A model generated the notes under the pieces. That model ran no database searches, was not told the origin of the DNA, and worked only from the letters and a program-made list of their open reading frames with translations. A stretch of 64,000 bases of DNA, taken from positions 49,104,001-49,168,000 of the forward strand of contig OZ024744.1 in assembly GCA_964016885.1 (NCBI GenBank), in the 5' to 3' direction. The stretch is from Eledone cirrhosa. Lineage: Eukaryota. Shown here one piece after another: positions 3,401 to 64,000 of the stretch; within the stretch, counting starts at the first letter, position 1; every line of letters starts with the position of its first letter. The position numbers and the translations under genes were made by a program.

Positions 3401-3407
3401 TATATAT

Positions 3408-3570
3408 AAGATAGTCAGGACCTCAACGGCTGATATCCGGCCGTTTTGACAGGTCTGTGTGTGTGTGTGTATATATATATGCATACAAACACACACACAC
3501 ATATATATTCACACACACACAGAGCTATCAAAACGACCGGATCTCAGCCATCGGGGTCCTGACTATCTTG
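3408..3570. mobile_element. MITE-like fold-back element with ~50-bp imperfect TIRs in a TA tract
   Basis: Left AAGATAGTCAGGACCTCAACGGCTGATATCCGGCCGTTTTGACAG is the imperfect reverse complement of right CTATCAAAACGACCGGATCTCAGCCATCGGGGTCCTGACTATCTT; interior is only (TG)n/(CA)n; flanked by TA. Confidence 0.75.
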
Positions 3571-3653
3571 TATATATATATAGATATATGTATATAATGT
3601 ATATATATATATATATATAATGTATATATATATATATATATATATAATGTATA

Positions 3654-17410: not shown

Positions 17411-17806
17411 TTTTATACATTATATATATATATATATATATATATATAAGTAAATAATCGAGAATCAGAATCGCGGCCCACGAAATAATGATAAACAATC
17501 TTCGACATGTGTGGCAGAGGGCTCAATAGTTTGGATAAACCAGAGCTATAACTATTGTTAAAATACCAACACATAGAGACGATGCCTAAAATCATTCGCA
17601 CAGCCGAAAAAAACGACCACGAAAATTCGGGTCACTCAAATATATATATATTGTTATACTTTGGGAGGGCCATGTTGCCAATAAGAAACACAAGCACCAG
17701 TTGCTTTCACTTCAATTTAATTTATTATATATTTATAAATTTACAAATTTATAAATTTCTGGTTGGTTGGTTGGTTCCACAACCAGATAGTTGTTTATAT
17801 ATATAT

Positions 17807-17851
17807 AGTCATAGTTCTTTCGTCACACACTCTGTGACCTCTTCAGTGACT
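17807..17851 (-). ncRNA. Minimal hammerhead ribozyme (mirror of 19348-19392)
   Basis: Reverse complement of AGTCA-CTGAAGA-G-GTCACA..TGTGAC-GAAA-GAAC-TA-TGACT. Confidence 0.82.
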
Positions 17852-19347: not shown

Positions 19348-19392
19348 AGTCACTGAAGAGGTCACAGAGTGTGTGACGAAAGAACTATGACT
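19348..19392 (+). ncRNA. Minimal hammerhead ribozyme
   Basis: AGTCA-CTGAAGA-G-GTCACA GAGTG TGTGAC-GAAA-GAAC-TA-TGACT; stem I AGTCA/TGACT. Confidence 0.82.
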
Positions 19393-19605
19393 ATATATAT
19401 ATAAACAACTATCTGGTTGTGGAACCAACCAACCAACCAGAAATTTATAAATTTGTAAATTTATAAATATATAATAAATTAAATTGAAGTGAAAGCAACT
19501 GGTGCGTGTGTTTCTTATTGGCAACATGGCCCTCCCAAAGTATAACAATATCGGTTTCAACACACGATTTCCGATAAAGAATCTTGCTAAACAAATTCAG
19601 AAACG

Positions 19606-19645
<40 letters not shown>

Positions 19646-37394: not shown

Positions 37395-37716
37395 AATATC
37401 TATATACATAAATGGCAATTTCTTACGTATATTTCATTTTAATCAAAGGGTTTCCCGGGAACACAAACCCCAGATGTTTCAACAGTATGTTTATATACAT
37501 ATATATATATATATTTCGTTTCTGAATTTATTTAGCAAGATTCTTTATCTGAAATCGTGTGTTGAAGCCGATATTGTTATACTTTGGGAGGGTCATGTTG
37601 CCAATAAGAAACACACGCACCAGTTGCTTTCACTTCAATTTATTATAATAAATTTTTAAATTTATAAATTTCTGGTTGGTTGGTTGGTTCCACAACCAGA
37701 TAGTTGTTTATATATT

Positions 37717-37760
37717 GTCATAGTTCTTTCGTCACACACTCTGTGACCTCTTCAGTGACT
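37717..37760 (-). ncRNA. Minimal hammerhead ribozyme (19348 design)
   Basis: Reverse complement of AGTCA-CTGAAGA-G-GTCACA..TGTGAC-GAAA-GAAC-TA-TGAC. Confidence 0.8.
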
Positions 37761-40700: not shown

Positions 40701-41360
40701 ATGTGTGTTGTTGTTGTCTCCGTGTGTGTTATTATTGTTGTGTGTGTTATTGTTGTTTGTGTCTGCGTGTCTGTTGTTGTTGTTTCTGGGTATGTTATTA
40801 TTGTTGTTGGTGTGTGTGTGTTGTTGTTATTGTTGTTTGTGTCTGTGTGTCTGTTGTTGTTGGGATGTGTGTGCGTATATTGTTACTTTTGTTTTTGTTT
40901 TTGTTTTTGAGGCTCCAGCGTAGTTTTGTAAATGATTTTTCTAATTCTGACAGACAACTAATCATATTTACCTTCTTGAATGTCGCAAATTTCGGTGGTA
41001 GACGTAATACAGATAACTCATCGTCATCTATTATCGTGTTGCCGTATATATTTGTGTTGTTGTTGTTGTTGTTGTTGAACAGAGGCAATAAACATAAAAG
41101 AATTACAACCAAAATTAAATAAAAAATATGAGTGGAACAGCAACATCACAACTTACAATTAAGGACAAAATGAAAACACACACACACATAGAACAAACAA
41201 CCAACCAGTAATATGTAAATAAACAAATAAATAAATGAACATAAACACACACAGACACCCGGATGTGGCGCATGCGCAGACTGAGCACACAACACACACA
41301 GAAACAAAATGGCGTAGGACAGAACAAAGGAGAGGCACAAAAACAAAGAAAGGAATCCCC

Positions 41361-41404
41361 AGTCACTGAAGAGGTCACAGAGTGTGTGACGAAAGAACTA
41401 TGAC
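41361..41404 (+). ncRNA. Minimal hammerhead ribozyme (19348 design); mutated copies at ~41787-41826(-), 41891-41934(+), 42522-42566(+)
   Basis: AGTCACTGAAGAGGTCACAGAGTGTGTGACGAAAGAACTATGAC; other copies have GAAA>AAAA or CTGA>CTGT. Confidence 0.8.
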
Positions 41405-41542
41405 AATATATAAACAACTATCTGGTTGTGGAACCAACCAACCAACCAGAAATTTATAAATTTATAAATTTATTATAATAAATTGAAGTGAAAGCAACTG
41501 GTGCGTGTGTTTCTTATTGGCAACATGACCCTCCCAAAGTAT

Positions 41543-41595
<53 letters not shown>

Positions 41596-42716
41596 TGTAT
41601 ATATAATTTGTTTTTTAATTTGTTTTGTAAGATATCTTATCTGGAAACGTGTGTTGAAACAGATATTGTTATACTTTGGGAGGGTCATGCTGCCAATAAG
41701 AAGACATTCACCTGTTGGTTTTAACTTCAATTTATTATAAGTTTCTGGTTGGTTGGTTCGATAACCAGAAGGTTGTTTATATATTTTCAAAGCTCTTTTG
41801 TCACGCATCCTGTGACCTCCTCAGTGCCTAGGTTTTATAAAAACAAGATGGTGTAGGACAGAACAAAGGAGAGACACAAAATAAAAACCTAGTCACTGAG
41901 GAGATCACAGAATGTGTGACAAAAGAACTTTGACAATATATAAACAACCTTCCAGGTATCAAACCAACCAACCAGAAACTTAAAGTAAATTGAAGTGAAA
42001 ACCAACATGTGCATGTGTTTTTACTGGCAGCATGACCCTCCCAAAGTATAACAATATCTGTTTCAACACACGTTTCCAGATAAGATATCTTACAAAACAA
42101 ATTAAAAAACAAATTATATATACATATTTATATATATATATTTCGTTTCTGAATTTGTTTAGCAAGATTCTTTATCTGAAATCGTGTGTTGAAACCGATA
42201 TTGTTATACTTTGGGAGGGTCATGTTGCCAATTACAGAGGCAATAAACATAAAAGAATTACAACCAAAATTAAATAGAAAATATTAGTGGAACAGCAACA
42301 TCACAACTTACAATTAAGGACAAAATGAAAACACACACACACATAGAACAAGCAACCAACAAATAACATGTAAATAAATAAACAAATAGATAAATGAACA
42401 CAAACACACACAGACACCCGGATGTGGCGCATGCGCAAACTGAGCACACAACACACATACAGAAACAAAATGGCGTAGGACAGAAGAAAGGAAAGGCACA
42501 GAAACAAAGAAAGGAATCCCCAGTCACTGTAGAGGTCACAGAGTGTGTGACGAAAGGACTATGACTATATATAAACAACTATCTGGTTGTGGAACCAACC
42601 AACCAACCAGAAATTTGTAGATTTGTAAATTTATAAATTTATAAATATATAATAAATTGAAGTGAAAGCAACTGGTGCGTGTGTTTCTTATTGGCAACAT
42701 GACCCTCCCAAAGTAT

Positions 42717-42764
<48 letters not shown>

Positions 42765-42879
42765 ATACTGTTGAAACATCTGGCAATATAACAATTCACT
42801 GACATCGAGTTCTATATCAATCAATCTATCTATCTATTGAATAAATAAAATTTAAAAAAAGAAAGAAAGATATCTATCC

Positions 42880-43680
42880 TGTTGACAGGGGCGATTGTCA
42901 ACAACAGGTGGTGGAGCTCTCACAAGAATTAGAATAGAATCGATAGCATTTAGCAATCGATAGCATTTATCAAGGAAGTAGCTTTAGAAAAAAACAAAAC
43001 TGAAAAGGAACTGGTAGCTAAAGTAGAAGAGGGACTTAGGAATGGAGTACAGCTAATGTGCTAGCGGCTAGAACGGCACAAGACCAGTTCTTCAACGTGA
43101 AACACGAAGGTTGTATTGTCAGAAGTAGAACACGTGCTCTAAGAAATGAGGGAGCCAAAGCTGTGATATGGAACGGCCCCGATAGGTAGCCGTTCACCTT
43201 GTCCCTTGAGCAGATGTTGCTGCTGTGCATTGCAGCAATCCAGCCCCTGAACACGGGTCCGAAGCCTGCCACCTCGAGCACCGTATCCAGGTAACGATGG
43301 TCAACCCTATCGAAAGCCTTAGACTGATCCAAGTTGATCAGGGCCCCACCGAAGCCGGGTTTACACCCTACCCTCTCTATGATGTATCGCATGAGGTGGA
43401 GGTTGTCGTGTATGGACCTGGTCGGGATTGCACATGTCTGCGCTTCTCCCACCAGGTTTTCGACGACAAGCGCCAGCCTCTTTGCCAACACCTTAGCCAA
43501 AATCTGTAACTCTGTGTTGAGCAGAGTTATGGACCGGAAGTTGCCTATGTCATCCCCCTTGTTCTCGTCCTTCCTGACTAACGTGATTACGCCTTTGGTC
43601 ACAGAACTGGGAATTCTCCCGTTCTGCTGCCAGTTGCATTAGATCGCTTTCAGGAAACCGGAGAAAAAGTCCGGGGCATT
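42880..43680. mobile_element. Two convergent Tx1 ORF2 fragments (42880-43164 +, 43163-43680 -)
   Basis: Plus part matches 52978-53246; minus part matches 53575-54090; both outer ends abut TATC repeats. Confidence 0.88.
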
Positions 43681-44550
43681 AAATAGATAGATATTTGTTC
43701 AGTATGTATACATTGTATTATATACATGTATTTACATAATATAGCAAGTTTGCTTTTCAATGACATCTGTGAACTTTCAAATGACTTATGGAGGTATATA
43801 TATATTGATTCAATGGTGATTGCTACAATGTTTTCTATACCTTTCATTTATATATTTATATATATATATATCTTTTATAATGAAACACAAGAACGTCTGA
43901 AAATTGTTTAGCTCTATGAATAAGAATTATTAACCCTTTCATTTGATGAGGGACACCCTACTCTGACCCTAATATTTTATCCACTTCATGGTCCTGGCCA
44001 ACAGGCTGGTGAAAACATTGCCTTTATGTACAGCCAGGGAGATGCACAGGAACAGCTACTCCACCTCATGGGGTTCACACCTGCCGGAAACCAGCTCCAT
44101 TCTGATAGCAGTTAAGGTTCAGGGACCAAGAATTTCAGAAGTCTCCACAGTCACAGGCTCAACCACAAACCTATCAGATAGTGGCCGATATTTTGACAGT
44201 TTACACTCTTTGGCCTGGTGGGCAACGAAGTGTGAGGTGTTAGCCAAATGCACCTGCTTGTTACTAGAAAAGGTGTCACAACATGTGGCATCCCAGATGA
44301 ACAGCCTACTCCCCTCCCCCGTAGAACAAGAAAATTGTTATGCCATCTGGCTTTTTGCCATCTCAGTTTAGCCCCACTGGCTTGAGCTAGAAAGGGAAGC
44401 CTGCACCATTCAGACCATGTTTTATGATCTCCTTGAGAGCGGCATGACAGGGAGGCAGCCAGCACTATAAAGGCATGGATACATTTGTTTGGAAAATGGT
44501 AATTTAAGAATGTATAAGCTGTCATATCTTTCTCCCCACAACTTTGCGTA

Positions 44551-44712
44551 TGTCTATCTATCTATATGTCTGTCAATTTGTCTCTCTGTCAGTCTATCTG
44601 TCTATCTATCTGTGTATCTATCTGTCTGTCTCTATCTATCTATCTATCTATCTTGTATTTGTCCCCTTCTTTTGTGCCCCTGTGGCTAATAAAGAAATAT
44701 ATCTATCTATCT
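44551..44712 (+). repeat. (TATC/TGTC)n microsatellite containing a solo ~50-bp Tx1 3' end
   Basis: TGTATTTGTCCCCTTCTTTTGTGCCCCTGTGGCTAATAAAGAAA at ~44654-44698 matches the B tail at 55798-55840. Confidence 0.9.
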
Positions 44713-44829
44713 AACTATAATCTAGCTGTCGTCTGTTCGACAGCGTAGACGTAATTCACTTCGCGCAGAAGCTTTGTTCCAATTTATTGCGAACATTTTG
44801 TAAGTTTAATTTTAATTTTGATACTATTG

Positions 44830-44920
44830 TGTAGCTTGACCCCCCCGTCTGAACTGTCAGGCGGTGGGTCAGCTCATCTTCGCCCCTCCCAGGGGTGAAA
44901 AACCTGTTTTTAAAAATTTT
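44830..44920 (+). promoter_or_regulatory. Conserved two-hairpin leader element upstream of Tx1 ORF1 (also 50081-50170, 55960-56050)
   Basis: Same layout in three diverged families: TTGACCC...GGGTCA long stem followed by TTCGCCCCT..AGGGGYGAA stem and TTTAAAAA; function unknown. Confidence 0.6.
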
Positions 44921-44950
44921 GTGGCATAAAATTTCAATCGTCTGGCAGAA

Positions 44951-46846
44951 ATGTTAAACGAAGCTAACGAAAATAGTGGTGGGGGGACAGCGGTAAGAGT
45001 TGTAAGCTCGCACGCTTTAGTCCCCCCTTCCTTCCCAACTAACGTCATAGAGAAAGAAAGAAAAAATAAAATGAAAACAGACGAATGTGCGGAGAAAAAT
45101 GACGAAAACACAAATCTGGAGATTGTGTCCAACAACAAAAAAAATTTGAAAGAATTGCATGACAATATTAATACCACAAACAAAGAAACAACAAACACAA
45201 AAATAACATTTGAAAACAACATCATAACAGAAAGCAAAACAGACGACAAAGTCAACACCAATAATATCTCATTTGCACAAACAACAAAGAAATCTTTAAC
45301 ATATATACCTGAAAATATTTCAGATGTGGCACAAAGAATAAAAAACGCCAAACAATACATAACTCAAGGGGAAAATGGAACCTTATCGGTAAAAATGCCC
45401 CAAGAACTCACCAAAGATATTGAAAGTCAGACGGTCGTTTTGCACACCATCAAGATCTAAAAAAAAACTCAACAACCAACACAAGCAGAAATTAAAGCAG
45501 TACTTACAGAAGTACTTAATGAAGCCACTTTCATAAGAAGAGACAGGCTGTATGGAAGCCTAGCCATTATTATGAAGAACGAATCGGCGGCAAAAAAATA
45601 TGCTTTGTCGCCGATTCGTTCGACAAATTTTACCTTTTATCCATCTTATATGGGTAAAAGAACTCAGCGCATATGGCTGGATGCGATGATGCAAGATGTG
45701 GACTACTGCTGGCTCATAGCTGGCTTCATCGATCCAGCGAATGACAACGTGATTTCCATTGGGAAAACCACAGGCAATGCGTTCAGTGGAACAGGTATAG
45801 AACTTGTAGTGCAAATGAAGCCTGAACGCATTGCCCAAATACCCGACAGAATCCTATTAGAGGGCCACGGGTATATAAACATTAGCGTGGAGGGGAGAAA
45901 GCCGTCCTGTCAAATCTGTGCAGGCAGAGGGCACCTGAAAGCGGCTTGTCCACAACTCAACAAGAAGAAAACCCTGCTACCAACACCAGCTCCACCACCA
46001 CCACAACAGATAAACAAACAACAAAACTCAGTCCCACCCAACCCGTCCCTCAGTAAAACTACACCACCACCACAGCACAAACAGACACAACACATTAACC
46101 AAAAACAAAACACAGTCCCACCCAACCCCTCACTCAATAAAACAACACAACCACCGCAGCCACAACAGACAACACAGTCTAACATAGTGACATCCATCTC
46201 CCCCACAAAGAAAACCAACACGGAAACATTACCAGCAAACATACCTCTTCCCTCCAACACTGAAGATAACCCAACGAATTCGGAGGAAGAAACGGAGTCC
46301 TTCAGACAGATTAAAAGGAAAAAAAGAAAACATGTGCAAAACACACAAAGCCAAACAGCCCCTACCCAAATGTCAACACAATCCAACAAAACACAAAACA
46401 CCCCTCCAGCAACAAACAAAACCAAACCTGCCCCTCCCCTCTTCGAAACACTCACACCATCCGAAAAAAAGACATTACACTATACTTACATCAACAGAAA
46501 CAATAATAAATTAAATGAACTCATAAACAATAACCCTTCGGTACAAACCGAAGGGGTAAACTTTGTTTCTTCAGAAAACTACCCACATTTAAAATTAATA
46601 AAGATTCCAATGAACCTCTACCAAAAACTAAAAAAGGATTTTAAGGAGGACGTAGGACCACCCTCTGTCAAACCCATAAACCGCGTCCTCCTAAAAAGCT
46701 TTCCCCCTCCCCTTCCCAACACAACTCCAAACACCCCAACCCCACCACACACTGACGACCCCACACCACCACAATACACCCCTTCACCCAACACCCCCGA
46801 CCCCATGGAAGTCGTGCGACCCGAACCCCGTGAAGCAGAAAGGTGA
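44951..46846 (+). pseudogene. ORF1 (gag-like, CCHC zinc knuckle) of family A
   Basis: Two ORF pieces joined at an A-run; homologous to 50217-52128. Confidence 0.85.
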
Positions 46847-49800
46847 GTCTCTACACTCTCCTTTGGCTTTGCCGCCCACATGGATGTGTTAAGAGTAGGA
46901 TGTTTGAATGCACGTGGCCTGGGCTCAACTTGGAAGCAAGCAAAGCTTCTAAATGACCTCAGGTCACGTGGTATAAATGTAATGGTTATCTGTGAGACTC
47001 GGATCAGCGTCGTGCGGCAGCTGGCCCCTACCTTCGATGACTTTGAGGTGCACGCATCTCTCTGTCAACCTGGAGGTGGGGGTGGGGTTGTCGTACTGCT
47101 GGAAAAACACCTGGGTCTCGCCGTACAGGTTGTTCACTCGGACCCGGAAGGTCGTTTGTTGATGCTAGACGTTGGCAGTAGTGGAGGTGCGGCCTTGAGA
47201 CTGGTCGCCGTCTACTCCACTTTCGGAGCTGAACGACCCGACTTCTTCCAGCGTCTAGAGACTTTTCTGGGAACGTCGCGTTCCCTGCTTCTAGCGGGGG
47301 ACTGGAATGACATCCTAGATGCACGTTGGGACTATGCAGGAGCATGTCCTAATAGAGGGGGGTGTAACAGCCTCAAGGGGTTACTCGACCGTTTTAACTT
47401 GGTCGATAGATATCGACTAGATTTTCCAACTGTGCCAACCTGGACTTGGACGAACCACAGTGGTCAATCTAGATCGTACTTACATAGATTCTTAGTTAGA
47501 AGTAAGGATAGGGACGAAGATGTGGCCAGAGTGCTGGCATCGAGGACGGCCTTGGGCCAGTTTTTCGATGCAAAGCACGAAGGCTGCGTCATTCGAAGTA
47601 AAATACGTGCTCTAGGTAATGAGGAGGCCAAAGCCATTGGCTGGGCCCGCGTGACAGAAGCTAAGAGTGGAAATCGATCCACCATCCGGTCTTTGCAAGA
47701 CGAGGATGGACGGGTGATCCGGGAGCCTAAGCAGATGTGCGAGGCCTTTCAAAGGCACTTTGCCCGATTGTTCGGGGGAGGCGGGTGTCCGGGCGGGGAC
47801 GTGGATTTCGGTCCATACCTCGACGGCCTGCAGCGTCTCTCGAGCGAAGAGGCAGAATCCTGCGAGGGACCAATCTCGGCTGATGAGATCGAGGATGCGC
47901 TGAGCCAATGCAGCAAACGCAAATCTCCAGGTCTCGATGGTATACCTTACGAACTTTATTTGGCAATGCCGGTCTTCTTCTCCGAACTCCTCAAAGCAGT
48001 CTACTGCAATTGGCAGCAGAACGGGAGAATTCCTTGTTCTGTAGCCAAGGGCGTAGTCTCGCTGGTGAGGAAGGACGAGAACAAGGGGGATAGTATAAAT
48101 AATTTTCGGCCCATAACCCTGCTAAACACAGAGTTAAAGATTTTGGCGAAGGTGTTAGCAAAAAGGTTGGCGCTTGTCGTGGCTAGCCTGGTGGGAGATG
48201 CGCAGACATGTGCTATCCCATCCAGGTCCATTCACGACAACCTCCACCTCATGCGATACATCATAGAGAGGGTGGCAACAAACCCGGCTTCGGTGAGGCC
48301 CTGATCAACTTGGATCAGTCTAAGGCGTTCGATAGGGTCGACCATGGTTACCTGGATGCGGTGCTAGCGGCGGCTGGGTTCGGTCCTGTTTTCAGAGGCT
48401 GGATCACTGCCTTACATAGCAACCACATCTGTTCTAGGATCAAGGTGAACGGCTACCTTTCGAAGCCGTTCGAAATCACACGATCCATTCGACAGGGGTG
48501 CCCTCTTTCCTCCCTTCTGTACGTATTGACTCTCGAACCTTTACTGAGGAAGTTGCAGGGTATCCCCCTGGAACCAGGATTGAGCAAAGCAGTGTCGGCC
48601 TACGCCGATGAGGTAACAGTAATGGTATCGACCGACTCGGAGATCGAGGCGATCGGCACCTTACTGGAGGAATACGAAAGGTTGTCAGGAGAAAAACTGA
48701 ACCGGGAAAAATCCATCGGGCTGCAACTCGGAACGTGGAGAGGCAGACCGATGCCTCCCGACGGTGTCGCCGGACACTGGACGGAGGTCCCGGTGAAGTT
48801 GCTTGGGGTCTGGTTTGGACCGGACCTCCAGGTGGAAAAGAACTGGGGCGAGGTTACGAGCAAGGTGTTTGCACTGACCCAGAAATGGGCCAAGTGTAAG
48901 CTGTCCCTGAAAGGTCGGGCGGAGGTGGCGAACATTTACATAGCGTCCGTCACCTACTACCGCCTGACTGTCGTGCCTTGCCCTAAGGAAACACTCACCA
49001 CCATGGAACGCATGGTCTTTCAATTTCTTTGGAAAAGGCGCCCTCCTATGGTGAGAAGATCCATCTGCTGCCAACAACCTTCGAAAGGGGAGCTGGGGAT
49101 GCCGTGGTTGATGATGCGTAGGCACGCATTAAGGCTACGGCATCTACAGGTATTCCTCACTGGTCAACCGGTATGGGCTCCGTTCGTGAGACGAGCCTTT
49201 CCGAGACTCGTCTCGCTCACCGAGTTGCAGTCCTGGGTCAAGCAAAGATCCGGAAAACTGGGCGACTGGCACACTGAGTGTGCCCAGGCGCTCAGGGCTC
49301 TCTGGCAAGCGGACCCGGCCATCGGTGGAGAATCCACCTCGTCATTCTATAGAGGGCTGGTGGCTAGCAGGAGCGATGACACCCTTGGAGAGTCACTGGA
49401 CATGGAAGAGGACGAACTGGCCAGCCTGTTCGGTAGGACTTTCGGCCCGGGACCAATGGACAACTTCCAGAAGTCACTGGCCTGGCAGTGCTACCGGGGG
49501 GCTCTACCCGTTCGAGAAAAGCTCTACAAACACGGGCGCCCGGGCAGGGATCCCTCGAAAAAGATTTGACCTAGATGCGTGCGTCACGAAGAAACCGTTG
49601 CGCACGCATTGGTGCAATGTCCGGGCGTGGCTGATCTGTGGGGCTACGCCGAACAACTGCTGTCGCGGGTGGCGCCGATTCGATTGACCGCCGAGTCCGT
49701 GATGACAATCAAGCCGCCTCCCCTCTTCACAAAGGAAGAAAAGGCGGTTTTTCTGTGCGTAATAGCCATGTTGAAAGAGGTTGTTTGGTGGACACGATTG

Positions 49801-50039
49801 AAAGGTCTGAGGTCAGGCAACTTCCTCTCTGGCCATAGTCTGGTCTACTTCTTCCGATATAACTTCGGAAGAAGGGTAAGAATGGAGAGAGAGGTGCTTG
49901 GCCACAGGCAGTTTTATGAAAGGTGGGTGATAGTGGCGAGAATGGCTCGTGTAAATGGGCCTTCTCTGTATACTATCCTGTAGGTAAAGAAGTGAAGGAG
50001 AGGGGAGCACCTCCTCCATGTGCTCCCCGTTTATTTATG

Positions 50040-53000
50040 TAAGAAAAAACGTGAGTTTTTATTTAAATGTTATATTATTGTGTAACTTGACCCCCCGTCA
50101 TGACTTTCAAGTGGTGGGTCAACTCATTTTCGCCCCTACAGGGGCGAAATATCCATTTAAAAAATATTTTTCTCCATCGAATATTGGAAAAAATATTGTA
50201 AAAGTTTGATTACGTTATGAACGCTGCGTCCAACGTTAATGGTGGTGGAGAGGCGGTAAGACTACAAAGCTCGCAGTCAACAACGTCTTCTTCACTAGAT
50301 ACTATAGAGATGGAAAGACGAAATGAAAATGTAAAAACGAATTCATATCCAAACAACACAAATGACCCCAAACAGTTCAATGACAACAAAAATAACAGCA
50401 ACACCAATAATGATGATAAAAGCAACAATGATAACAACAACAAAGAAAAAAATAAAGACAACACCAATAACACCAGCATCAAAGACAACAACAACACCAA
50501 GGAAAATACGAATAATACCAACATCGGTGACAATAAGAATAACAACAATAATAACAACAATAATGACAACACCAACACGGATTCCACAAAGAAACCAAAA
50601 ATCTACTTTGCAGAGAAAGTTAAAAAAAAGGAGGAATTGATATATCTTGACATAACAAATGCTGAACAACTTTTAAAGGACGCTAGGAGATATGTCACTT
50701 TCGAAAAAAATGGTGCTTTCAGCATCAATTCTCCGGTAGAAATTCGCAAGGAAACTGCTCTCAAAACGATAGTTTTTAGGACAGTTTCCAATTCTACCCG
50801 AAAACCAGCCCAATTGTCACAGAAAGAAATTGAACTGGTTTTCAAAAATTCAATGAATGATATTGCATTCATTCAAAGAAGCAAACTTTTTGGGAGTATT
50901 TCGGTACTCATGAAGGATCAATTGACGGCCCAAAATTACTCTGTGTCGCCAATTGTATCCAACCTGTACACCTTTTTCCCTACATACATGGGAAAAAGGA
51001 CACAAAAGATCAGAATCACGAGTGTCACACCAAAGGTGAACATATGGTGGATACTGTGCAGCTTCATCAATTTTGACGAAGACAGAATACTGTCAGTAGA
51101 AAAGTCCCCCAGAGATGTATTCAATGGGACTAGCATTGAAGTTCTGGTGCAAATGAGCCCAGAGCGAATAGCTATGATCCCACAACGTGTACTCCTGGGC
51201 GGACTCACCTACATAAACTTTTCGGTTGAGGGTAGGCGGCCTTCATGTTACCATTGCTTTAGCAGGGGTCACCTGAGAGCTTCCTGTCCTAAATTAATGA
51301 ATAAAAAAAAGGCTCTTCTGCCGACACCCATCAAAACAACACAACCACCAACACCACCACAACAACAACAACACCAACACACAACAATAACCACAACAAA
51401 CACAGTCCCACCCAACCCCACTCCACCTAAAACCACTGCAAAATCACATACAGACACAACAGCTCCCCAAGACATACCCCTCCCCAATCACACAGACGAT
51501 ACAACAGATGAGGCTATCTCGCCATCACCCAGTGAAGACGAGGGAGAACCCCATCGCTCGAAAAGAAAGAAAAGACATCACAAAAGCAAAAACCAGCAAA
51601 CACTGCCACAAACATACAACCACCAACACAAACAACAAAAACATCACAAACAAAACCCCCACCTCCTGAAAACAAAATACCTACAACAAAACGAAAGCAC
51701 ACACAAGAACTACAGACAAAAACAAACACAACACAAGAAAATTACACTTACACTTACATAAACACTGAAAACAAAACACTAATGGAGACCATCACGAACG
51801 ACCCTTCGGTGAAAACCGAAGGGAAAACTTTCGCCCTCTCTATTAAAAATAGCAAAAAACTGAACCTAAAACTGATTAGGGTCCCTATACAAACTTATAG
51901 GTCCCTAAAAGAAACATTTGAGAAGGATGTGGGGAATTCCTGCGTGAAACCACTCAACCGCGTCCTTCTCAAATGTCTCCCCACCCCAGACACCCCCATC
52001 CCACCAGACCCCACCCCACCAAACATCTCCGCCCCACCCCGCCGGAAACCACCATCCATCCAGACAACCCCTCCAACACCCCCATGGAAATCGTGCGGCC
52101 TGGTCCACAGGAGACGAAGGGTGAGTGATCTCTTTTCCTCTTTTAACTTTTCAGCACCAACATGGCCAATATAAGAGTTGGATGTGTGAACGTACGCGGC
52201 CTGGGGATGCCCTGGAAACAGGGCAAACTCTTAAACGACCTCAGGTCGCACAGTATGGATGTAGTAGCCATTTGCGAGTCCAGGATCCACAGCGAGCGAC
52301 AGCTGGCCCCCATCTTCGATGACTTTGAGATCTACGCATCTCTCTGTCAACCTGGGGGTGGGGGCGGAGTTACCGTTTTGCTGCGGAAACACCTGGGCTT
52401 CGTAACACAGACGGTACATCTGGACCCGGAGGGTCGACTGGTGGTCCTAGACGTTGACGGTAGTGAAGGTGGAGCCTTCAGGCTGGTGGCCGCATATGCC
52501 CCATCCGAGACACCGCGGCCAGACTTCTTCAAACGTCTAGAGACTTTTCTGGGAACGTCCCGCTCCTTGCTTTTAGTGGGGGACTGGAATGGAATCCTAG
52601 ATGCACGTTGGGACTATGTGGGAGCATGTCCCGATAAAGGGGGGGGGGGTGTAACAGCCTCAAACAGTTAATCGACCGATTTGACCTGGCCGATAGATAT
52701 CGACTAGATTTTCCGACTGCGCCACTGTGGACGTGGAGTAATCGTAGCGGAACATCTAGATTGTACCTAGATAGGGTTCTAGTTAGAAATAAGGATATGG
52801 ACATGTTAAGCTGTCCACAAATGTTCATGGTTGCCTATTCAGATCACAAACTAGTGACCTGCATGGCCAACCTTGATAGAACCCATAGACAAGGACCCAG
52901 CTACTGGAAGCTGAACTTGTCGTTACCGACAAGCAAAGCCTACAGTAGACGGATTAGCACTTTAGTTAAACAGCACTTGACAGGGGCCATTGTCAACAAC

Positions 53001-55870
53001 AAATGGTGGTACTCTCTCAAGAGGGAAGTTAGATTAGACTCGATAGTTTTTAGTAAAGAATTAGCGTTAGATAGAAATAGAACCGAGATGGAACTGGTAG
53101 ATAAAGTAGAAGAGGCAATTAGAAGTGGCAACGTAGCCAGCGTGCTAGCAACGAGAACGGCCTTGGAGCAGTTCTTCGACGCAAAGCACGAGGGCTCGTT
53201 GTCAGAAGCAAAATACGTGCTCTGGGAAACAAGGGAGCCAAAGCTGTTAGCTGGGCCCGAGTGACGGAGGCAAAAAGTGGCAACAAGTCCACGATTCGGT
53301 CTTTGAAGGACCAAAACGGACGCGTGATACATGAGCCGAAGCAGATGTGTGCGACTTTTCAGTGGCACTTTGCTCAACTGTTCGGGGGGAACGGCACGAC
53401 GGGAGAGGCTATGGATTTCGGTCCATATCTCGACGGCCTACCGCAACTCTCGGACAGCGAGGCAAAGTTCTGCGAAAAGCCGATTTCAGCCACTGAGATA
53501 GGGGACGCGCTGAGCCAATGCGGCAAACGCAAATCTCCAGGTCTCGACGGTCTACCCTACGAATTTTACGTAGCAATGCCGGACTTATTCTCCGGTCTCC
53601 TGGAAGCGGTCTAGTGCAACTGGCAACAGAACGGGAGAATTCCCAGTTCTGTAACCGGGGGCGTGGTCACACTAATCAGGAAGGACGAGAATAAGGGGGA
53701 TGACATAGGCAAATTCCGGCCCATAACTCTGCTCAACACAGAGTTACAGATTTTGGCTAAGGTGTTGGCAAAGAGGCTGGCGCTTGTCGTCGAGAACCTG
53801 GTGGGAGAAGCGCAGACATGCGCAATCCCGACCAGGTCCATACACGACAACCTCCACCTCATGCGATACATCATAGAGAGGGTTGGGTGTAAACCCGGCT
53901 TCGGTGGGGCCCTGATCAACTTGAATCAGTCTAAGGCTTTCGATAGGGTTGACCATCGTTACCTGGATGCGGTGCTCGAGGTGGCAGGCTTCGGACCCGT
54001 GTTCAGGGGCTGGATTGCTGCAATGCACAACAGCAACATCTGCTCAAGGGTCAAGGTGAACGGCTACCTCTCGGAGCCGTTCCATATTACGCGATCCATT
54101 CGACAGGGATGCCCTCTCTCCTCCCTTCTGTACGTACTGACTCACGAGCCACTACTGCGGAAGTTGGAGCTATTGCAGGGCATCCCTCTGGGACCGGGAC
54201 TGCGAAAAGCGGCGTCGGCCTACGCCGACGACGTGACAGTAATGGTGTCGAGCGCCTCGCAAATCGAGGAAGTCGCCACTTTACTGAAGGAATACGAAAG
54301 TTTCACAGGAGCGAAACTGAACCGGGACAAGGCCATCGGTTTGCAACTTGGATCGTGGAGAGGCAAACCGATGACTTCCGATGGCGTCGTCGGACGCTGG
54401 ACGGAAGGACCGGTAAAGCTGCTCGGGGTCTGGTTTGGTCCGGACCTCCAGGTGGAGAAGAACTGGAACGAAGTGACGGCCAAGGTGTTTGCACTCACCC
54501 AGAAGTGGGCCGAGTGCAAACTATCCTTGAAATATCGAGCGGAGGTGGCGAACACTTTTATAGCGTCCGCCATCTACTACCGCTTCACCGTCGTGCCTTG
54601 TCCACCCAAAACGCTCGCCAAAATGGAACGCGCGCTCTTCCGATTCCTTTGGAAGAATGGGGCTCCTTTGGTGAGAAGATCCATCTGCTGCCAACACCCT
54701 TCTAACGGAGGGCTGGGGAGGCCGTGGTTGACGATGCGCAAACACGCGCTCAGGCTGCGGCATCTCTACGTATTCCTCACCGGACAACCAGTGTGGGCCC
54801 CGTTCGTGAGGCGAGCCTTCCCACGACTCGTCTCGCTGACCGAGCTGCAGTCCTGGGTCAAGCAAAGACCGAGGAAAATGGGCGACTGGCACATCGAATG
54901 TGCTCAGGCGCTGACAGCCCTCTGGCAGGCGGACCTAGCGATCAGTGGAGACTCCACTTCGTCATTCTATAGAGGGTTGATCCGCAGCAAGTGCGACGAC
55001 GCGCTCGGTGAAACTCTAGGCGCAGAGGAAGATGAAATGGCCAGTCTGTTCGGTAGGACCTTCCGCCCGGGACCGATGGACAACTTACAAAAGTCACTGG
55101 CCTAGCAGTGCTACCGAGGAGCTCTACCAGTTCGAGACAAGCTCTACAGACATGGGCGCCCGGGCAGGGACCCTACAAAAAAGATCTGTCCGAGGTGCGT
55201 GCGAGACGAAGAAACCGTCGCGCACGCATTCATACACTGCCCGGGCGTCACTGACCTGTGGGGCTATGTAGAACGACTATCGTCGCGGGTGGGACCAATC
55301 CAGTTGACCACCGAGTCCATTGTCATGATCAAACCGCCACCCTCCTTCAAAAACGAAGGAGAGGCGGTTTTCCGTTGTGTGATAGCTATGGTGAAAGAGG
55401 TTGTATGGTGGACAAGGTTGAAAGGGCTGAGGTCAGACACCTTTTTCTCCGGCCAACAACTGATTCTTTTTTTCAAATACCACTTTGGAAGAAGAATCAG
55501 GGTGGAGAGAGAGGTGCTGTACCCCAGCAAGTTTTATGAAAGGTGGGTGAAAGTGGCGAGAATGGCCCGAGTGAATGGGCCTTCTCTCTATATCAGCCTG
55601 TAGGTTGAGGAAAAGGAGGAGGAGAGGAAAGGAGTACAAACTCTTCGTACTCCTGGAGATGAGGGTTGCACATTTTTTCGGGGGTATGTGTTACCCATAT
55701 AAACTGTCTCCCCCTATTGGGGAAAATCGACTAACTTTTTAAATTACATTTGTGATAACATTTTACACGTTTTTATTGTATGTAAACTTCTCCCTTCGTA
55801 TTTGTCCCCTTCTTTTGTGCCCCTGTGGCTAATAAAGAAACATATCTATCTATCTATCTATCTATTTATC
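50040..55870 (+). mobile_element. Tx1/L1-clade LINE family B, full length, decayed
   Basis: ORF1 50217-~52128 (CYHCFSRGHLRASC); ORF2 52162-55603 (CVNVRGL, ICESR, YSDHKL, AYADDV, CPRC..HC); 3' UTR, AATAAA, (TATC)n tail. Confidence 0.96.
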
Positions 55871-58800
55871 TGCCTGATGCATGGAACATCGCCGGTAAGC
55901 TTTTTTGTTAATTTCTATGCAAAAAAACCGAACCAATTGTTTGAAAAAACATAATATTTTGTAGATTAACCTCCAAGCTGAATTGTCAGCTGGGTGGTAA
56001 TCCCATTTTTCGCACCTTTAGGGGCGAAAACTTAATTTAAAAATTGTTTTAAAATATCAAATTTTGCCAACTATAAAACATGAATAGCTCGGAAAGAACG
56101 CTAGAGAACGTTGACAGAGAGAAGAGAGGTAAAGAGGCAGATATTAACGTTATATCTGCTTCTGCTACTATGGACGTCGCCATAGATACGACTGTCAACA
56201 AAGAGAAAAAATATTACCACTTGAAGATTTTAAAATTTCTACTGTCGAAGCGGGGAAAAATAACAATAACACACAGGAAAACACAGGAATTGAACCTATT
56301 AACATACATACACATGAAAAAGACAACATCAACAACTCCATAGATACATCTACACATAAAGTTTCACCTCGTCAAGAAATTGAGATTTCCAACACCAAGA
56401 CTAACAACGATAACAACAACAACAACAACAGCAATACCACACAAAAAAAATGTCTTTCACTGAAACTGAACAAAAAACAAGATTTTATAAATCTTGAAAT
56501 CTCCAATGCAAGAGATATGCTCCAGCAAGGGAGAAAATTTATAACTTTCGAAGACAAGGGTGGGTTTAGAATTAACTCACCCCTCGAAATAAAAGAAGAG
56601 ACAGTTCGAAGGTCAGTGACCTTTAGGACTGTCTCCAACACAACGAGAAAGCCGATATATGTTAATCAAGCAGATATAGAAGCCACTTTCAAGGAGACTC
56701 TAGCAAATATTGACTTTCTCCAATGAGGAAAACAATACGGAAGTGTTTCTGTACTGTTTAAAAGCGAGGCACTCGCCCAAAAACATTCTGTGACACCAAT
56801 GGTGTCAAAAGCATTCACCTTTTTCCCTACGTATATAGGATAAAGGACAAAAAAAAAATATATATATATATATATTACCAAAACATTAACATCTGGTGGA
56901 TCTTGGCTGGCTTCGTAGAGCCAGAGATTGATATGATTCTTTCGATACGAAAGTCTATTAGACAAAGGTGGGCGGGTACTGATTTGGAGATTCTGATTCA
57001 AATGAGGCTGGAGAGACAACAACAAAATAAACATTACGGTGGAGGGTCGAAAACTTCATTGCTTTCGCTGTGGTAGCACATCACACCTAAAGGCCTCCTG
57101 TCCTTCACAAACACACCACAACATCATTAAAAAAACACTATTACCAACACCAACACCAAAACAACCACCACCACAAGTACAACAACAGACGAAACGAGCA
57201 AACACACCAAAACAAACAGCCACTCAACCAACAACAACAGAAAAAACACAGACAACATCCCTGAAGAACACAGCCCCACCCCATCAAACACTACCACAAA
57301 CACACACACCAAAATACCACCACCACACAACATAACCCTACCCCACACTCCTGACGATGATTATTCATCGACAGATGAGGCTGCTTCTCCTTCTTTAAGT
57401 GAAGAAGGAGAGCCTCGGAAATCTAAAAAACAAAAAAGAGACACCACAAAACTCCCAAAACTCCAATCACCAACACCAACACACAACCACAGACACAAAC
57501 AACAACACAAACAACACCACAGTCAAACATCCCTCTACCAGAAAAATCAACACCAACACCACCCCAAACACAAGCACCCACCATAAAAAGAAAACTCCCG
57601 GACGAACAACAAACTAAAACAACACAACAAAAACACAAACAACAATACGCATACATCAACACAAACAACAAGAGTTTGATGGAGGTCATCTCCCAAAACC
57701 CCAAGGTGGAGATGGAGGGCAAAACTTTCGTCAAAGCAGAATCGTCTCCACACCTAAAACTAATAAGGGTTTCGATAGAAACCTATCAGAAATTGAAAAA
57801 AAAACAGTTTTCGCAGGATGTTGCAATCCCTGTCAAAAACCTATTAACCGCGTCCTATTAAAATGTTTCCCCACCCCACCCAACACCCCCAGAACTGAAA
57901 TGGAGATTGAACAACCCGATCTCCACCAACATGGCTAGTTTACGAGTTGGAAGCGTGAATGTGCGTGGCCTAGGGATGCCCTGGAAACAGGGCCAACTTT
58001 TAAACGATCTTAGGTCACACGGTATGGATGTGATAGCCATCACCAAGTCCAGGATCCACAACAGGCAGCAACTAACCCCCATCTTCGACGACTTTGAGAT
58101 CTACGCATCTCTCTGTCAGCCAGGAGGTGGAGGGGGAGTGGCTGTCATGTTTCGGAAGAACCTGGACGTCGAAGTACAGCAAGTACACTTGGACCCGGAG
58201 GGTATACTGGTAGTCCTAGACGTGAAAAGTATTGGAGGTGGAGTCTTCAGACTGGTGGCCGTTTATGCACCGACCGGGCAATCGCAATCACGGCCAGACT
58301 TCTTTAAGCATCTAGAGTCTTTTCTGGGAACATCTCGCTCCTTACTTTTAGTGGGGGACTGGAATGTTATCCTAGATGCACGATGGGACTATGTGGGAGC
58401 ATGTCCTAGTAGAGGGGGGTGCAAAAGCCTCAAAACTTTAATCGGCCAATTCCAACTGGCCGATAGGTATCGACTGGACTTCTCGACTGCACCACAGTGG
58501 ACGTGAGCAAACCGCAGGGGGACATCTATATCGTATTTAGATAGGTTCTTCATTAGAGAAAGGGACAACGATATGTTAAGCTGTCCACGAATGCACATGG
58601 TTGCCTATTCAGATCACAAATTAGTCGTCTGCTTAGTCAACCGTGATAGAATACATAGACAAGGACCCAGATACTGGAAGCTGAACGTCTCGTTGCCGGC
58701 ACGTAAAGCTTACAGTGAACGGATAAGTAGACTAGTCAAGCAACAGTTAACGGGAGCCATCGTCAACAATAGATGGTGGTACTCTCTCAAGAAAGCAATT

Positions 58801-60250
58801 AGAGTAGAATCGATAGGGTTTAGCAGAGAGTTAGCCTTAGAGAAAAACAAAATAGAAAGAGAACTAGTAGCCAAGGTAGAGGAGGCACTTAGAAGTGGCA
58901 ACGCGGCTAGAGTGTTAGCGTCAAGAACGGCACTAGACCAGTTCTTTGACGAAGGCTGCGTGGTCAGAAGCAAAACACGTGCTCTAGGAAACGAAGGAGC
59001 AAAGCTGTCAGCTGGGCCCGATTGGCAGAGGCAAAAAGTGACAACAAGTCCACGATTCGGTCTTTGAAAGACCAAAACGGACACATGCGACTTGAGCCGA
59101 AGCAAATGTGCGCGGCCTTTCAGCAGCACTTTGCGCGACTGTTTGAGCAGAATGATGGTGAGCCGAACTGGGTAATGGACTTTAGTTTATACCTCGACGG
59201 CCTGCCGCGTCTCTCAAACACGGACACCGAGTTCTGTGAAAGACCGATCACGGACACTGAGATATGGGACCGCTGCGGGGAATGCAAGTCACCAGGTCTA
59301 GATGGTCTACCATATGAGTTTTACATAGGCATGCCGGACTTGTCCTCTGGCATCCTCGAAGCCGTCTACTGCAATTGGCAGCAGAACGGTAGAATTCCCA
59401 GTTCTGCAGGCAAGAGCGTAGTAATGCTGATCAGGAAAGACGAGAAAAAGGGGGACGAGATTAACAACTTCAGGCCCATAACTCTGCTCAACACAGAGTT
59501 AAAGATTTTGGCCAAGGTGCTAGCGACGAGGTTGGCACTTGTCGTCAAGAACCTGGTAGGGAAAGTGCAAACGTGTGCAATCCCGACCAGGTCCATAATG
59601 ACAACCTCCAATTCATGCGATACATCATAGAGAGGGTGGGTAGTAAACCCGGCTTCGGTGGGGCTCTGATCAATTTGGATCAGTCTAAGGCATTCGATAG
59701 GGTCGACCATCGATACTTGGAAGCGGTTCTCAAGGCGGCCGGTTTCAGTCCCGTTTTCAGAGGCTGGATTGAGGCGATGCACACCAGCATCTGCTCGAGG
59801 GTCAAGGTGAACGGCTACCTATCGGAGCCATTCGCCATCACGCATTCCATTCGACAGGGATGCCCTCTCTCTCCTCCATTCTGTATGTATTGACTCTAGA
59901 GCCATTACTGCGGAAATTGGAGCTATTGCAGGGCATCCCTCTAGAACCGGGACTGCGCAAAGCGGCGTCGGCTTATGCTGACAACGTGACGGTAATAGAG
60001 TCGAGCACCTCGGAAATCAGGTTGATCGGCAACTTACTGAAAGAATACGAAACGCTGACGGGAGCAAAACTAAATCCGGACAAGTCTGTCGGTTTGCAAC
60101 TCAGTATGTGGAGAGGAAAACCGATGACGTCCAACAGCGTCGTTGGATGCTGGACGGACGGACAGGTGAAATTACTCGGGTTTGGTTCGGTCCAGACCTC
60201 CAGGTGGAGAAAAACTGGAATGAGGTCACGGCCAAGGTGTTTGCGCTCAC
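55871..60250 (+). mobile_element. Tx1/L1-clade LINE family C, 3' end replaced by satellite
   Basis: ORF1 remnants 56080-57900 (CFRCGSTSHLKASC); ORF2 from ATG ~57930 to the RT region; breaks at GTGTTTGCGCTCAC. Confidence 0.93.
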
Positions 60251-63200
60251 AGTAGTTTCATAGATATATATAGGTAGAACATAGTCACAGTAGTTTCATA
60301 GATATATAGGTAGAACATAGTCACAGTAGTTTCATAGATATATAGGTAGAACATAGTCACAGTAGTTTCATAGATATATATAGGTAGAACATAGTCACAG
60401 TAGTTTCATAGATATATATAGGTAGAACATAGTCACAGTAGTTTCATAGATATATATAGGTAGAACATAGTCACAGTAGTTTCATAGATATATATAGGTA
60501 GACCATAGTCACAGTAGTTTCATAGATATATAGTAGAACATAGTCACAGTAGTTTCATATATATATAGGTAGAACATAGTCACAGTAGTTTCATAGGTAT
60601 ATAGGTAGAACATAGTCACAGTAGTTTCATATATATATATAGGTAGAACATAGTCACAGTAGTTTCATAGATATATAGTAGAACATAGTCACAGTAGTTT
60701 CATAGATATATATATATTAGAACATAGTCACAGTAGTTTCATAGATATATATATATAGTAGAACATAGTCACAGTAGTTTCATAGATATATATAGGTAGA
60801 ACATAGTCACAGTAGTTTCATAGATATATATAGGTAGAACATAGTCACAGTAGTTTCATATATATATAGGTAGAACATAGTCACAGTAGTTTCATAGATA
60901 TATATAGGTAGAACATAGTCACAGTAGTTTCATAGATATATAGGTAGAACATTGTCACAGTAGTTTCATAGATATATATAGGTAGAACATAGTCACAGTA
61001 GTTTCATAGATATATAGTAGAACATAGTCACAGTAGTTTCATAGATATATAGGTAGAACATAGTCACAGTAGTTTCATAGATATACAGGTAGAACATAGT
61101 CACAGTAGTTTCATAGATATATAGTAGAACATAGTCACAGTAGTTTCATAGATATATAGGTAGAACATAGTCACAGTAGTTTCATAGATGTATAGGTAGA
61201 ACATAGTCACAGTAGTTTCATATATATATAGGTAGAACATAGTCACAGCAGTTTCATAGATATATATATAGGTAGAACATAGTCACAGTAGTTTCATAGA
61301 TATATATAGGTAGAACATAGTCACAGTAGTTTCATATATATATAGGTAGAACATAGTCACAGTAGTTTCATAGATATATATATAGTAGAACATAGTGACA
61401 GTAGTTTCATAGATATATATAGGTAGAACATAGTCACAGTAGTTTCATAGATATATAGGTAGAACATAGTCACAGTAGTTTCATACATATATAGGTAGAA
61501 CATAGTCACAGTAGTTTCATAGATATATATAGGTAGAACATAGTCACAGTAGTTTCATAGATATATAGGTAGAACATAGTCACAGTAGTTTCATAGATAT
61601 ATATATATAGTAGAACATAGTCACAGTAGTTTCATAGATATATAGTAGAACATAGTCACAGTAGTTTCATAGATATATATAGGTAGAACATAGTCACAGT
61701 AGTTTCATAGATATATATAGGTAGAACATAGTCACAGTAGTTTCATAGATATATATAGTAGAACATAGTCACAGTAGTTTCATAGATATATATATAGTAG
61801 AACATAGTCACAGTAGTTTCATAGATATATATAGGTAGAACATATTCACAGTAGTTTCATAGATATATATAGGTAGAACATAGTCACAGTAGTTTCATAG
61901 ATATATATAGGTAGAACATAGTCACAGTAGTTTCATAGATATATAGGTAGAACATAGTCACAGTAGTTTCATAGATATATATATATAGTAGAACATAGTC
62001 ACAGTAGTTTCATAGATATATAGTAGAACATAGTCACAGTAGTTTCATAGATATATATAGGTAGAACATAGTCACAGTAGTTTCATAGATATATATAGGT
62101 AGAACATAGTCACAGTAGTTTCATAGATATATATAGTAGAACATAGTCACAGTAGTTTCATAGATATATATATAGTAAAACATAGTCACAGTAGTTTCAT
62201 AGATATATATAGGTAGAACATAGTCACAGTAGTTTCATATATATATAGGTAGAACATAGTCACAGTAGTTTCATATATATATAGGTAGAACATAGTCACA
62301 GCAGTTTCATAGATATATAGGTAGAACATAGTCACAGTAGTTTCATAGATATATATAGGTAGAACATAGTCACAGTAGTTTCATAGATATATATAGGTAG
62401 AACATAGTCACAGTAGTTTCATAGATATATAGGTAGAACATAGTCACAGTAGTTTCATATATATATAGGTAGAACATAGTCACAGTAGTTTCATAGATAT
62501 ATATAGGTAGAACATAGTCACAGTAGTTTCATAGATATATAGGTAGAACATAGTCACAGTAGTTTCATAGATATATAGGTAGAACATAGTCACAGTAGTT
62601 TCATAGATATATATAGGTAGAACATAGTCACAGTAGTTTCATAGATATATATAGGTAGAACATAGTCACAGTAGTTTCATAGATATATATAGGTAGAACA
62701 TAGTCACAGTAGTTTCATAGATATATATAGGTAGAACATAGTCACAGTAGTTTCATAGATATATAGGTAGAACATAGTCACAGTAGTTTCATATATATAT
62801 ATATAGGTAGAACATAGTCACAGTAATTTCATATATATATATAGGTAGAACATAGTCACAGTAGTTTCATATATATATATAGGTAGAACATAGTCATAGT
62901 AGTTTCATAGATATATAGGTAGAACATAGTCACAGTAGTTTCATAGATATATAGTAGAACATAGTCACAGTAGTTTCATATATATATAGGTAGAACATAG
63001 TCACAGTAGTTTCATAGGTATATAGGTAGAACATAGTCACAGTAGTTTCATATATATATATAGGTAGAACATAGTCACAGTAGTTTCATAGATATATAGT
63101 AGAACATAGTCACAGTAGTTTCATAGATATATATATAGTAGAACATAGTCACAGTAGTTTCATAGATATATATATATAGTAGAACATAGTCACAGTAGTT

Positions 63201-64000
63201 TCATAGATATATATAGGTAGAACATAGTCACAGTAGTTTCATAGATATATATAGGTAGAACATAGTCACAGTAGTTTCATATATATATATAGGTAGAACA
63301 TAGTCACAGTAGTTTCATAGATATATATAGGTAGAACATAGTCACAGTAGTTTCATAGATATATATAGGTAGAACATAGTCACAGTAGTTTCATATATAT
63401 AAAGGTAGAACATAGTCACAGTAGTTTCATAGATATATAGGTAGAACATAGTCACAGTAGTTTCATAGATATATAGTAGAACATAGTCACAGTAGTTTCA
63501 TAGATATATAGGTAGAACATAGTCACAGTAGTTTCATAGATATATAGGTAGAACATAGTCACAGTAGTTTCATAGATATATATATTGGTAGAACATAGTC
63601 ACAGTAGTTTCATATATATATATATAGGTAGAACATAGTCACAGTAGTTTCATAGATATATAGGTAGAACATAGTCACAGTAGTTTCATAGATATATATA
63701 GGTAGAACATAGTCACAGTAGTTTCGTAGATATATATAGGTAGAACATAGTCACAGTAGTTTCATAGATATATAGGTAGAACATAGTCACAGTAGTTTCA
63801 TAGATATATATAGGGAGAACATAGTCACAGTAGTTTCATAGATATATATAGTAGAACATAGTCACAGTAGTTTCATAGATATATATATAGTAGAACATAG
63901 TCACAGTAGTTTCATAGATATATAGGTAGAACATAGTCACAGTAGTTTCATATATATATATATAGGTAGAACATAGTCACAGTAGTTTCATATATATATA
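60247..64000. repeat. Satellite/minisatellite, ~35-41-bp unit TCACAGTAGTTTCATAG(AT)nAGGTAGAACATAG, roughly 100 copies, runs off window
   Basis: Direct reading; unit length varies through the (AT)n core and G/GG variant. Confidence 0.99.

Follow-up and report, generated by a model that had tools for sequence, protein, structure and literature searches.

The 64,000-nt window analysed here (Eledone cirrhosa OZ024744.1:49104001-49168000; genome 3.0 Gb; coordinates below refer to this stretch) contains co-oriented copies of three families of long interspersed nuclear elements (LINEs) of the L1/Tx1 type, termed A, B and C, and a short stub of family B. The junctions indicate that this stack probably grew as elements of a lineage that targets (TATC)n microsatellites inserted independently, one after another, with the target likely duplicated on each side of the new copy.

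Insertion into TATC repeats

The flanks of sister copies elsewhere in the genome carry the evidence for targeting. The best 30 loci for each family, minus the window's own, gave 29 heads each, and a 7-mer of the TATC repeat lies within 30 nt upstream of 81 of these 87 heads (26/29 for A, 26/29 for B and 29/29 for C), against 404 of 56,920 windows (0.71%) in 200 kb of random genome. The repeat on the opposite strand precedes 0/87 heads. One repeat type in >20% of flanks has been used to define microsatellite targeting (PMC4494074; this and the other papers given by accession are cited for excerpts of their text), a level that the 81/87 heads exceed. Among the six heads without a match, L064 and L086 have short TATC spacers behind a family tail, and the remaining four are in TA- or AT-rich sites. 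The exact shared 3' end followed by TATC occurs 11,419 times genome-wide, with 0 occurrences of a reversed-pattern control. Most 5'-truncated copies carry TATC at the break, and young copies (at least 99% identical to L182, a naturally intact B copy) already sit in TATC. An earlier note on this DNA, made from the window alone, had proposed a lineage directed to (TATC)n and had named the genome-wide 5' flanks as the place where the proposal could fail; the strong enrichment and the strict polarity of these flanks uphold it.

L182 encodes an ORF1 of 638 aa, with a single weak CCHC match (E 0.24), and an ORF2 of 1145 aa (ORF, open reading frame) with the order APE-RT-zf-RVT (PF03372, 5e-12; PF00078, 6e-27; PF13966, 4e-6; RT, reverse transcriptase). 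The best solved relative of ORF2 is L1 ORF2p (E 7.7e-51), far above R2. With an N-terminal APE domain, an RT, a C-terminal zinc domain and a separate ORF1, the elements are APE-type non-LTR retrotransposons of the L1/Tx1 group, and both 5' truncation and target-site duplication, hallmarks of target-primed reverse transcription, are present. For example, 21 of 30 position-ordered copies end within 1.5 kb of the 3' end, a few of them through internal deletion, and full length is possible for at most 9 of the 30 TATC copies. A, B and C are different families, with ORF2 sequences 67-80% identical.

The 3' poly(A) and T-rich TTTT/AA target that characterize the L1 clade are not a feature of these elements, as an A run follows 1 of 220 listed family-type 3' ends (taken from the loci fetched, some counted twice). 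This sole case, a B end at L174 with ~24 A before TATC, is possibly a rare poly(A)-primed insertion. AATAAA sits just upstream of the 3' end although poly(A) is nearly always missing, and support is weak for a hairpin of 3-4 bp upstream of AATAAA (5 sequences, -4.3 kcal/mol, double change in 2/9 pairs). The closest named matches to ORF2 are an Argonauta hians hypothetical protein (67%), in keeping with an octopod host, and fish hypothetical proteins (36-39%). Proteins labelled 'Transposon TX1' neighbour one fish match at 49-50%; of these, P0235 was compared, and it has no RT core and matched at only 25%. Membership of the Tx1 clade is plausible. Assembly proteins 44-53% identical to ORF2 (P0003-P0077) were also seen, some in clusters of hundreds of members; the atlas search returned generic APE-RT clusters and nothing closer, and among metagenome contigs no relatives with flanks were confirmed.

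We surveyed 149 copies with both ends visible for duplicated targets. A non-repeat match between the flanks flagged 29 of these, and 16 show clean target-site duplications of 11-21 bp, the signature that the earlier note had suggested looking for. The duplicated target begins 0-5 nt past the last AAAGAAA of the element (2 nt in 11/16), and an equal duplicate of the TATC target stands in front of each readable element. Since the duplication starts this close to the element, the TATC behind a copy is mainly the left part of the target-site duplication, with an own-tail mechanism playing a minor role. The implication is a different origin for the 3' repeat from that given in the earlier note, where the element's own tail was held to regenerate the target: in each of the 16 readable copies the duplication begins with the 3' TATC, and extra units are clear in L006 alone, which has about four TATC units beyond the target's number.

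The same 3' end is not confined to TATC sites. With any following bases it occurs at least 25,736 times genome-wide (control 45), and among the first 100 ends on contig C1, counted by eye, the following bases are TATC in 51, ATT in 30, a fixed satellite site in 16 and other AT-rich sequence in 3. The two-base spacer after the 3' end is identical in all target classes.

The array in the window

The window was mapped onto natural full-length LINE copies, with repeats identified by Tandem Repeats Finder (TRF), domains by Pfam and ORFs by tblastn. A degenerate (TCTA/TCTG)n tract at 44551-44652 (+ strand; TRF period 4, 25.8 copies, 74% matches) is the host microsatellite upstream of the array. It is followed by the 45-nt, 5'-truncated 3' stub of family B (44653-44697, +), which is 100% identical to L182 5802-5846 and has the young 'TA' type of end, and by a TATC spacer (44698-44719, +) that is the target-site duplication either of the stub or of A. 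Copy A (44720-50029, +; PF03372 and PF00078) is 96-97% identical to its sister copies and keeps its native 5' head, while its ORF1 and ORF2 (APE, RT) are broken; 323 nt are deleted internally at 47515, and the final 171 nt are absent.

Copies A and B meet at a 3-nt CCG microhomology (50027-50029, +). Intact A ends and B heads show what is gone at this joint: the TATC spacer and 203 nt of the two elements (171 nt of A and 32 nt of B). Intact A-(TATC)n-B junctions are found at five other loci (L052, L163, L165, L186 and L188), and on the simplest reading the joint in the window would be a later deletion. No short-read contig among the matches listed spans it, which is uninformative either way, and short-read tail-to-body joints have just 21-28 nt on the short side and are weak evidence.

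Copy B (50027-55840, +; placed by tblastn and Pfam) is 96.8% identical to the intact L182. It is without its first 32 nt, has broken ORF1 (~50217-52125) and ORF2 (~52162-55600), and ends in AATAAAGAAA without poly(A). The following (TATC)n spacer (55841-55869, +) merges into the TATC-like head of copy C (55870-60250, +), 91% identical to L191 and a member of the oldest of the three families; B-(TATC)n-C junctions recur at seven other loci (L129, L140, L149, L171, L176, L185 and L189). At its position 4511 (of 5837) C is interrupted by a 38-bp satellite (60247-64000, no strand assigned; TRF) that extends 9,040 nt past the window, and the remaining 3' part of C was not found in the 30 kb searched there. 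This satellite (L321) spans ~12.8 kb overall, has a TA stretch of variable length and overlaps C by 4 nt at its start. All LINE copies in the window are broken, and stub, A, B and C all lie on the + strand. The order, the shared strand and the TATC after the stub and after B thus agree with the layout described in the earlier note, as do the heads of A and C directly behind TATC (spacers 44698-44719 and 55841-55869); the plain succession of A and B in that layout appears instead to be a deletion joint without TATC.

Upstream of the array, an ORF2 fragment of a further family member (42881-43164, +; 74-82% identical to the families compared) has TATC on its 5' side at 42871-42878, and an RT-containing ORF2 fragment of family B (43163-43674, -; 94% to B; PF00078) has TATC on its 5' side at 43683-43690 (minus strand). 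The pair (42881-43674) consists of two converging fragments fused tail-to-tail with the middle gone and with TATC at each 5' break. The outer junctions had been described before as TATC runs, which is correct at both, except that they are the two 5' junctions of one converging pair. A separate 5'-truncated B copy (1-3384, +; 93.9% to L182), starting ~350 nt before the window, lies in a TA/TATC-rich site.

Stacking and its explanation

The members of this lineage are clustered far beyond expectation. Among the first 100 ends on contig C1, 19 of 99 gaps are no longer than 6.5 kb, against 1.4 expected, and all 19 separate copies on the same strand. Of 30 position-ordered ends, 15 run directly into a co-oriented family member (some within the same array), and 36/87 heads are preceded by one. 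Arrays retrieved from other loci contain as many as 5-7 members that differ in family and age, which bears out the multi-family, co-oriented arrays predicted in the earlier note, and they segregate by target, ATT with ATT and satellite with satellite. Nor is the array in the window a segmental duplication, the other origin raised there, because A, B and C are distinct families and similar junctions occur at independent loci with different spacers. Elsewhere, an identical two-element stack with its immediate flanks is found at L265/L266 and L274 (contig C1, 34.17 and 35.33 Mb), evidently a segmental duplication.

Much of this stacking is a matter of supply. We collapsed the (TATC)3+ runs of contig C1 0.3-38 Mb into 85, of which 13 are at a family tail, 11 lie within 6.3 kb 5' of one, 4 lie further downstream and 0 are on the opposite strand; the supply of family junctions is therefore 28-33% (24/85, or 28/85 including the further-downstream class). 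Since ~30% of TATC runs already flank family elements, stacking stems largely from target supply, and to reach the 40-50% seen, no more than a modest additional preference for family junctions is required. New copies land on either side of old ones. In front of older copies, the duplications include head bases of the older neighbour (L087, L140, M1), and behind older copies they carry the unique flank of the old tail (L160, L276, L277). Sister copies of C differ pairwise by 4.8-5.6%, compared to 2.0-3.0% for A and B, and the distance to the nearest sister is 3.0-3.8% for the window's C and 1.7-2.0% for its B. As C is the oldest family by this divergence, B probably landed in front of C.

A particular class of neighbours is formed by tandem pairs whose two members have exactly the same 5' breakpoint (L005, L007, L008); L287 is likewise listed as such a pair. 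At L005 and L007, a young 3' haplotype with a TA end in the upstream copy is paired with an older haplotype and a CA end in the downstream one, although both members share private 5' alleles (5516C in 2/60 and 5460G in 2/48 copies compared). These two cases suggest that a new cDNA was primed just ahead of an old copy and used that neighbour as the template for its completion. That a copy landing ahead of a neighbour takes over its breakpoint in every case was rejected as a general rule, as most same-family pairs start differently (e.g. L009).

In the mechanism we propose, the APE domain would nick the GATA strand, and the element RNA would continue a few bases beyond AAUAAA and so into the UAUC of the target that follows, so that target-derived bases (UAUC, AUU or satellite, by family) would follow AAUAAAGAAA in the RNA. 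This RNA end would pair with the nicked strand, setting the start of reverse transcription and bypassing poly(A), and a staggered second nick would then duplicate the target. Each insertion would leave two usable sites, one per side, and with the target regenerated on both sides arrays would therefore grow both ways. After more than 11,000 insertions, family junctions make up ~30% of TATC runs, from which stacking largely results. For the window, this would mean that C probably came first with B in front of it, and that a later deletion fused A to B and the satellite replaced the 3' end of C.

A number of observations weigh against this reading. The head samples are top-scoring and non-random and include at least two pairs with duplicated flanks (L096/L098 and L106/L110), and copies at L063, L100, L102 and L115 occupy TA-rich or other non-TATC sites. 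Flanks of pure repeat make any duplication unreadable in 120 of the 149 copies surveyed, and of the 29 flagged matches we discarded 13 that were tandem pairs, off-register or spurious. Stacking (15/30 and 36/87) is somewhat above the supply estimate. Insertion order in the window comes from family-wide divergence, both relevant duplications being lost, and the nick and RNA-pairing steps are deduced solely from the junctions.

Could the own tail nevertheless drive the arrays, by making new TATC through RNA templating or RT slippage, with later copies preferring tails and growth proceeding 3'-ward? The ~4 extra units of L006, the excess of tail-side stacking (15/30) over supply and the insertions into old tails (L160, L276, L277) would fit. 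We nonetheless consider it improbable, as the 3' TATC of all 16 readable copies is the start of the duplication at an offset of 0-5, insertions occur before old heads too (L087, L140, M1), and the C family is about twice as diverged as B. It is very unlikely, in turn, that arrays arose by single events, whether template jumping, read-through dimers, duplication of whole units or assembly artefact. Neighbours differ in family and in age (for example, a copy 99% identical to L182 next to one at 85%), a third copy of the duplication is present in the spacers that can be read (L160, L277), and the spacers differ among the other loci with A-B (5) or B-C (7) junctions. One dimer does have the same flanks at two contig C1 loci (M3, L274), the TATC-like bases at element heads could prime a jump, and the shared 5' breakpoints of the L005, L007 and L008 pairs are what a single event might leave; the L005 and L007 hybrids, however, fit a new insertion finished on its neighbour and not plain duplication.

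The remaining alternative is a loose AT/TA bias, with TATC resulting from later growth of a microsatellite from a short seed or from survival in inert repeats. Passive accumulation of this kind was proposed for Drosophila Waldo-A/B (PMC3812793), and the copies in (TA)n or AT-rich sites (the four non-TATC loci above and window 1-3384) are compatible with it. It accounts poorly for the strict strand polarity (0/87 opposite), the fixed +2 register in all three target classes, the TATC 5' of randomly truncated copies, the young copies (>=99% to L182) already in TATC and the use of other repeats by sister families of the same genome, and we regard it as hardly credible. Successive insertion by a TATC-targeting lineage thus remains our preferred account of the stack.

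Further elements were noted in the window. Directly behind the B copy at 1-3384, a short inverted-repeat element (3407-3580) lies in a TA tract, with similar elements beside L036, L102 and L170; we take it to be akin to a TA-targeting miniature inverted-repeat transposable element. Palindromic element copies with inverted arms of ~430-520 bp ending in (TA)n are found at 17640-19636, 37486-38403 and 41079-42761, and further inverted pairs at 25031-25547/27806-28313 and 5554-5934/6941-7312. The segment 30792-32691 (-), with weak hAT dimerisation and BED finger matches (E ~0.008), is probably a decayed hAT transposon, and an RT fragment at 9469-10176 (+; PF00078, 2e-20) belongs to an unrelated retroelement, with no tblastn match to B ORF2 at E 1e-4.

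Sister families and known systems

The ends followed by ATT (L215, L295-L300, L309-L320) belong to two families with different heads, whose ORF2 sequences are 97% alike and 69-70% identical to that of B. Copies that retain the head are flanked by ATT on either side, and in the loci seen the two families stack solely with each other. Those at the satellite site belong to a family S (L289-L294, L301-L308; e.g. contig C1 4.22-4.26 Mb) whose insertion site is a single register of a 72-bp satellite. With 313 heads and 349 ends genome-wide, ~90% of its copies are full-length, and the head is kept in 15 of 15 traced copies; up to six are stacked in a row, the family lies mostly near the ends of the largest contigs, and several copies have long open ORF2 frames. 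S is closer to B (ORF2 86%, endonuclease 81% identical) than are A (73%) and C (74%), with a nearly identical hairpin loop. In the tree, the grouping of S and the TATC families against the ATT families is firm (100/100). A nesting of S inside the TATC families was obtained with FastTree and was not retained, as IQ-TREE leaves the base open and the approximately unbiased test does not reject TATC monophyly (p 0.149).

How S came to its satellite is a matter on which we offer a tentative suggestion, one we think possible but doubtful. The RNA ends may, beside the endonuclease, carry the target address, in that a copy reads its landing site into both RNA ends, which are inherited, and this may have let S switch to the satellite. 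In favour of this, the endonuclease of S is nearer to that of B than are those of A and C, which share B's target. The satellite bases before the S head seem more uniform than the unit after its tail (L291, L302, L308), which hints that the S head carries satellite sequence. On the other hand, because the 72-bp satellite site contains TCTAT, a small change in the endonuclease or a bias of location could also have produced the switch. If the suggestion holds, a satellite-derived head makes ~90% of S insertions full-length, and target switching by inheritance of the landing site would be open to view, and to swapping, in intact sisters within a single genome.

The array itself is the expected product of a known habit; what makes it valuable is the natural experiment to which it leads. 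Naturally intact sister LINEs of a single genome share the design of their 3' ends and differ in target between (TATC)n, (ATT)n and one fixed position in a 72-bp satellite, which bears on how the specificity of APE retrotransposons changes, through the endonuclease or through RNA-target pairing. B and S differ at ~19% of endonuclease residues, and swaps of domains and RNA ends should therefore be straightforward. In addition, retrotransposons adjoin about a third of the TATC/GATA microsatellites in this genome, a point to consider in designing markers and annotating repeats.

The closest parallels are Kibi on (TC)n and Koshi on (TTC)n in teleosts and the crocodilian Tx1 families on (TTCC)n/(TTTC)n (PMC4494074, PMC3812793). 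These too are APE-type LINEs that prefer one microsatellite, with related families on related units. The unit here is (TATC)n, with sisters on (ATT)n and a 72-bp satellite, and the host is a mollusc; the likeness to Kibi and Koshi is one of target habit. A review lists ACAY, AC, TC, TTC and TAA as LINE targets (PMC3812793), and an Octopus vulgaris repeat annotation reports 13 recent L1-Tx1 families in a main text that never uses the word 'target' (PMC13282606). No TATC- or GATA-targeting LINE was found in the full-text literature, a search that covered article texts and not Repbase or the supplementary files to PMC4494074 and PMC13282606, where families of this kind may be listed.

Tandem insertion likewise has precedents in the SINEU-3 and Tx1-Mar insertions 'sandwiching a TSD' (target-site duplication; PMC4494074) and in tandem Alu inserts (PMC3415434), where head-to-tail copies result from one insertion after another at a duplicated target. 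In the present case, by contrast, several autonomous families (ORF2 67-85%) share the target and arrays reach 5-7 members. For the proposed pairing of RNA and target, the models are R1Bm and SART1Bm, in which target-like 3' bases of the RNA set the start of reverse transcription (PMC7265360, PMC6895275), and R2Bm, which carries upstream rRNA and in which upstream target at the 5' end favours full-length insertion (PMC6895275), an effect that family S seems to show. Those elements belong to the R1 and R2 clades, have rDNA or telomere targets and were tested in vitro or in cells, whereas the pairing considered here is deduced from junctions. The APE-RT ORF2 aligns along L1 ORF2p, and its betaB6-betaB5 hairpin aligns to that of L1 without gaps and so lacks the 2-residue longer tip of Tx1L (PMC1950540). 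Unlike human L1, the elements described here are without a poly(A) tail and are sequence-targeted. Microsatellite-targeting Tx1 LINEs and tandem insertion are thus already known, while the (TATC)n unit was not found in the literature searched; our analysis adds the satellite-using sister family S (ORF2 86% to B, ~90% full-length) and two young/old hybrid pairs with identical breakpoints.

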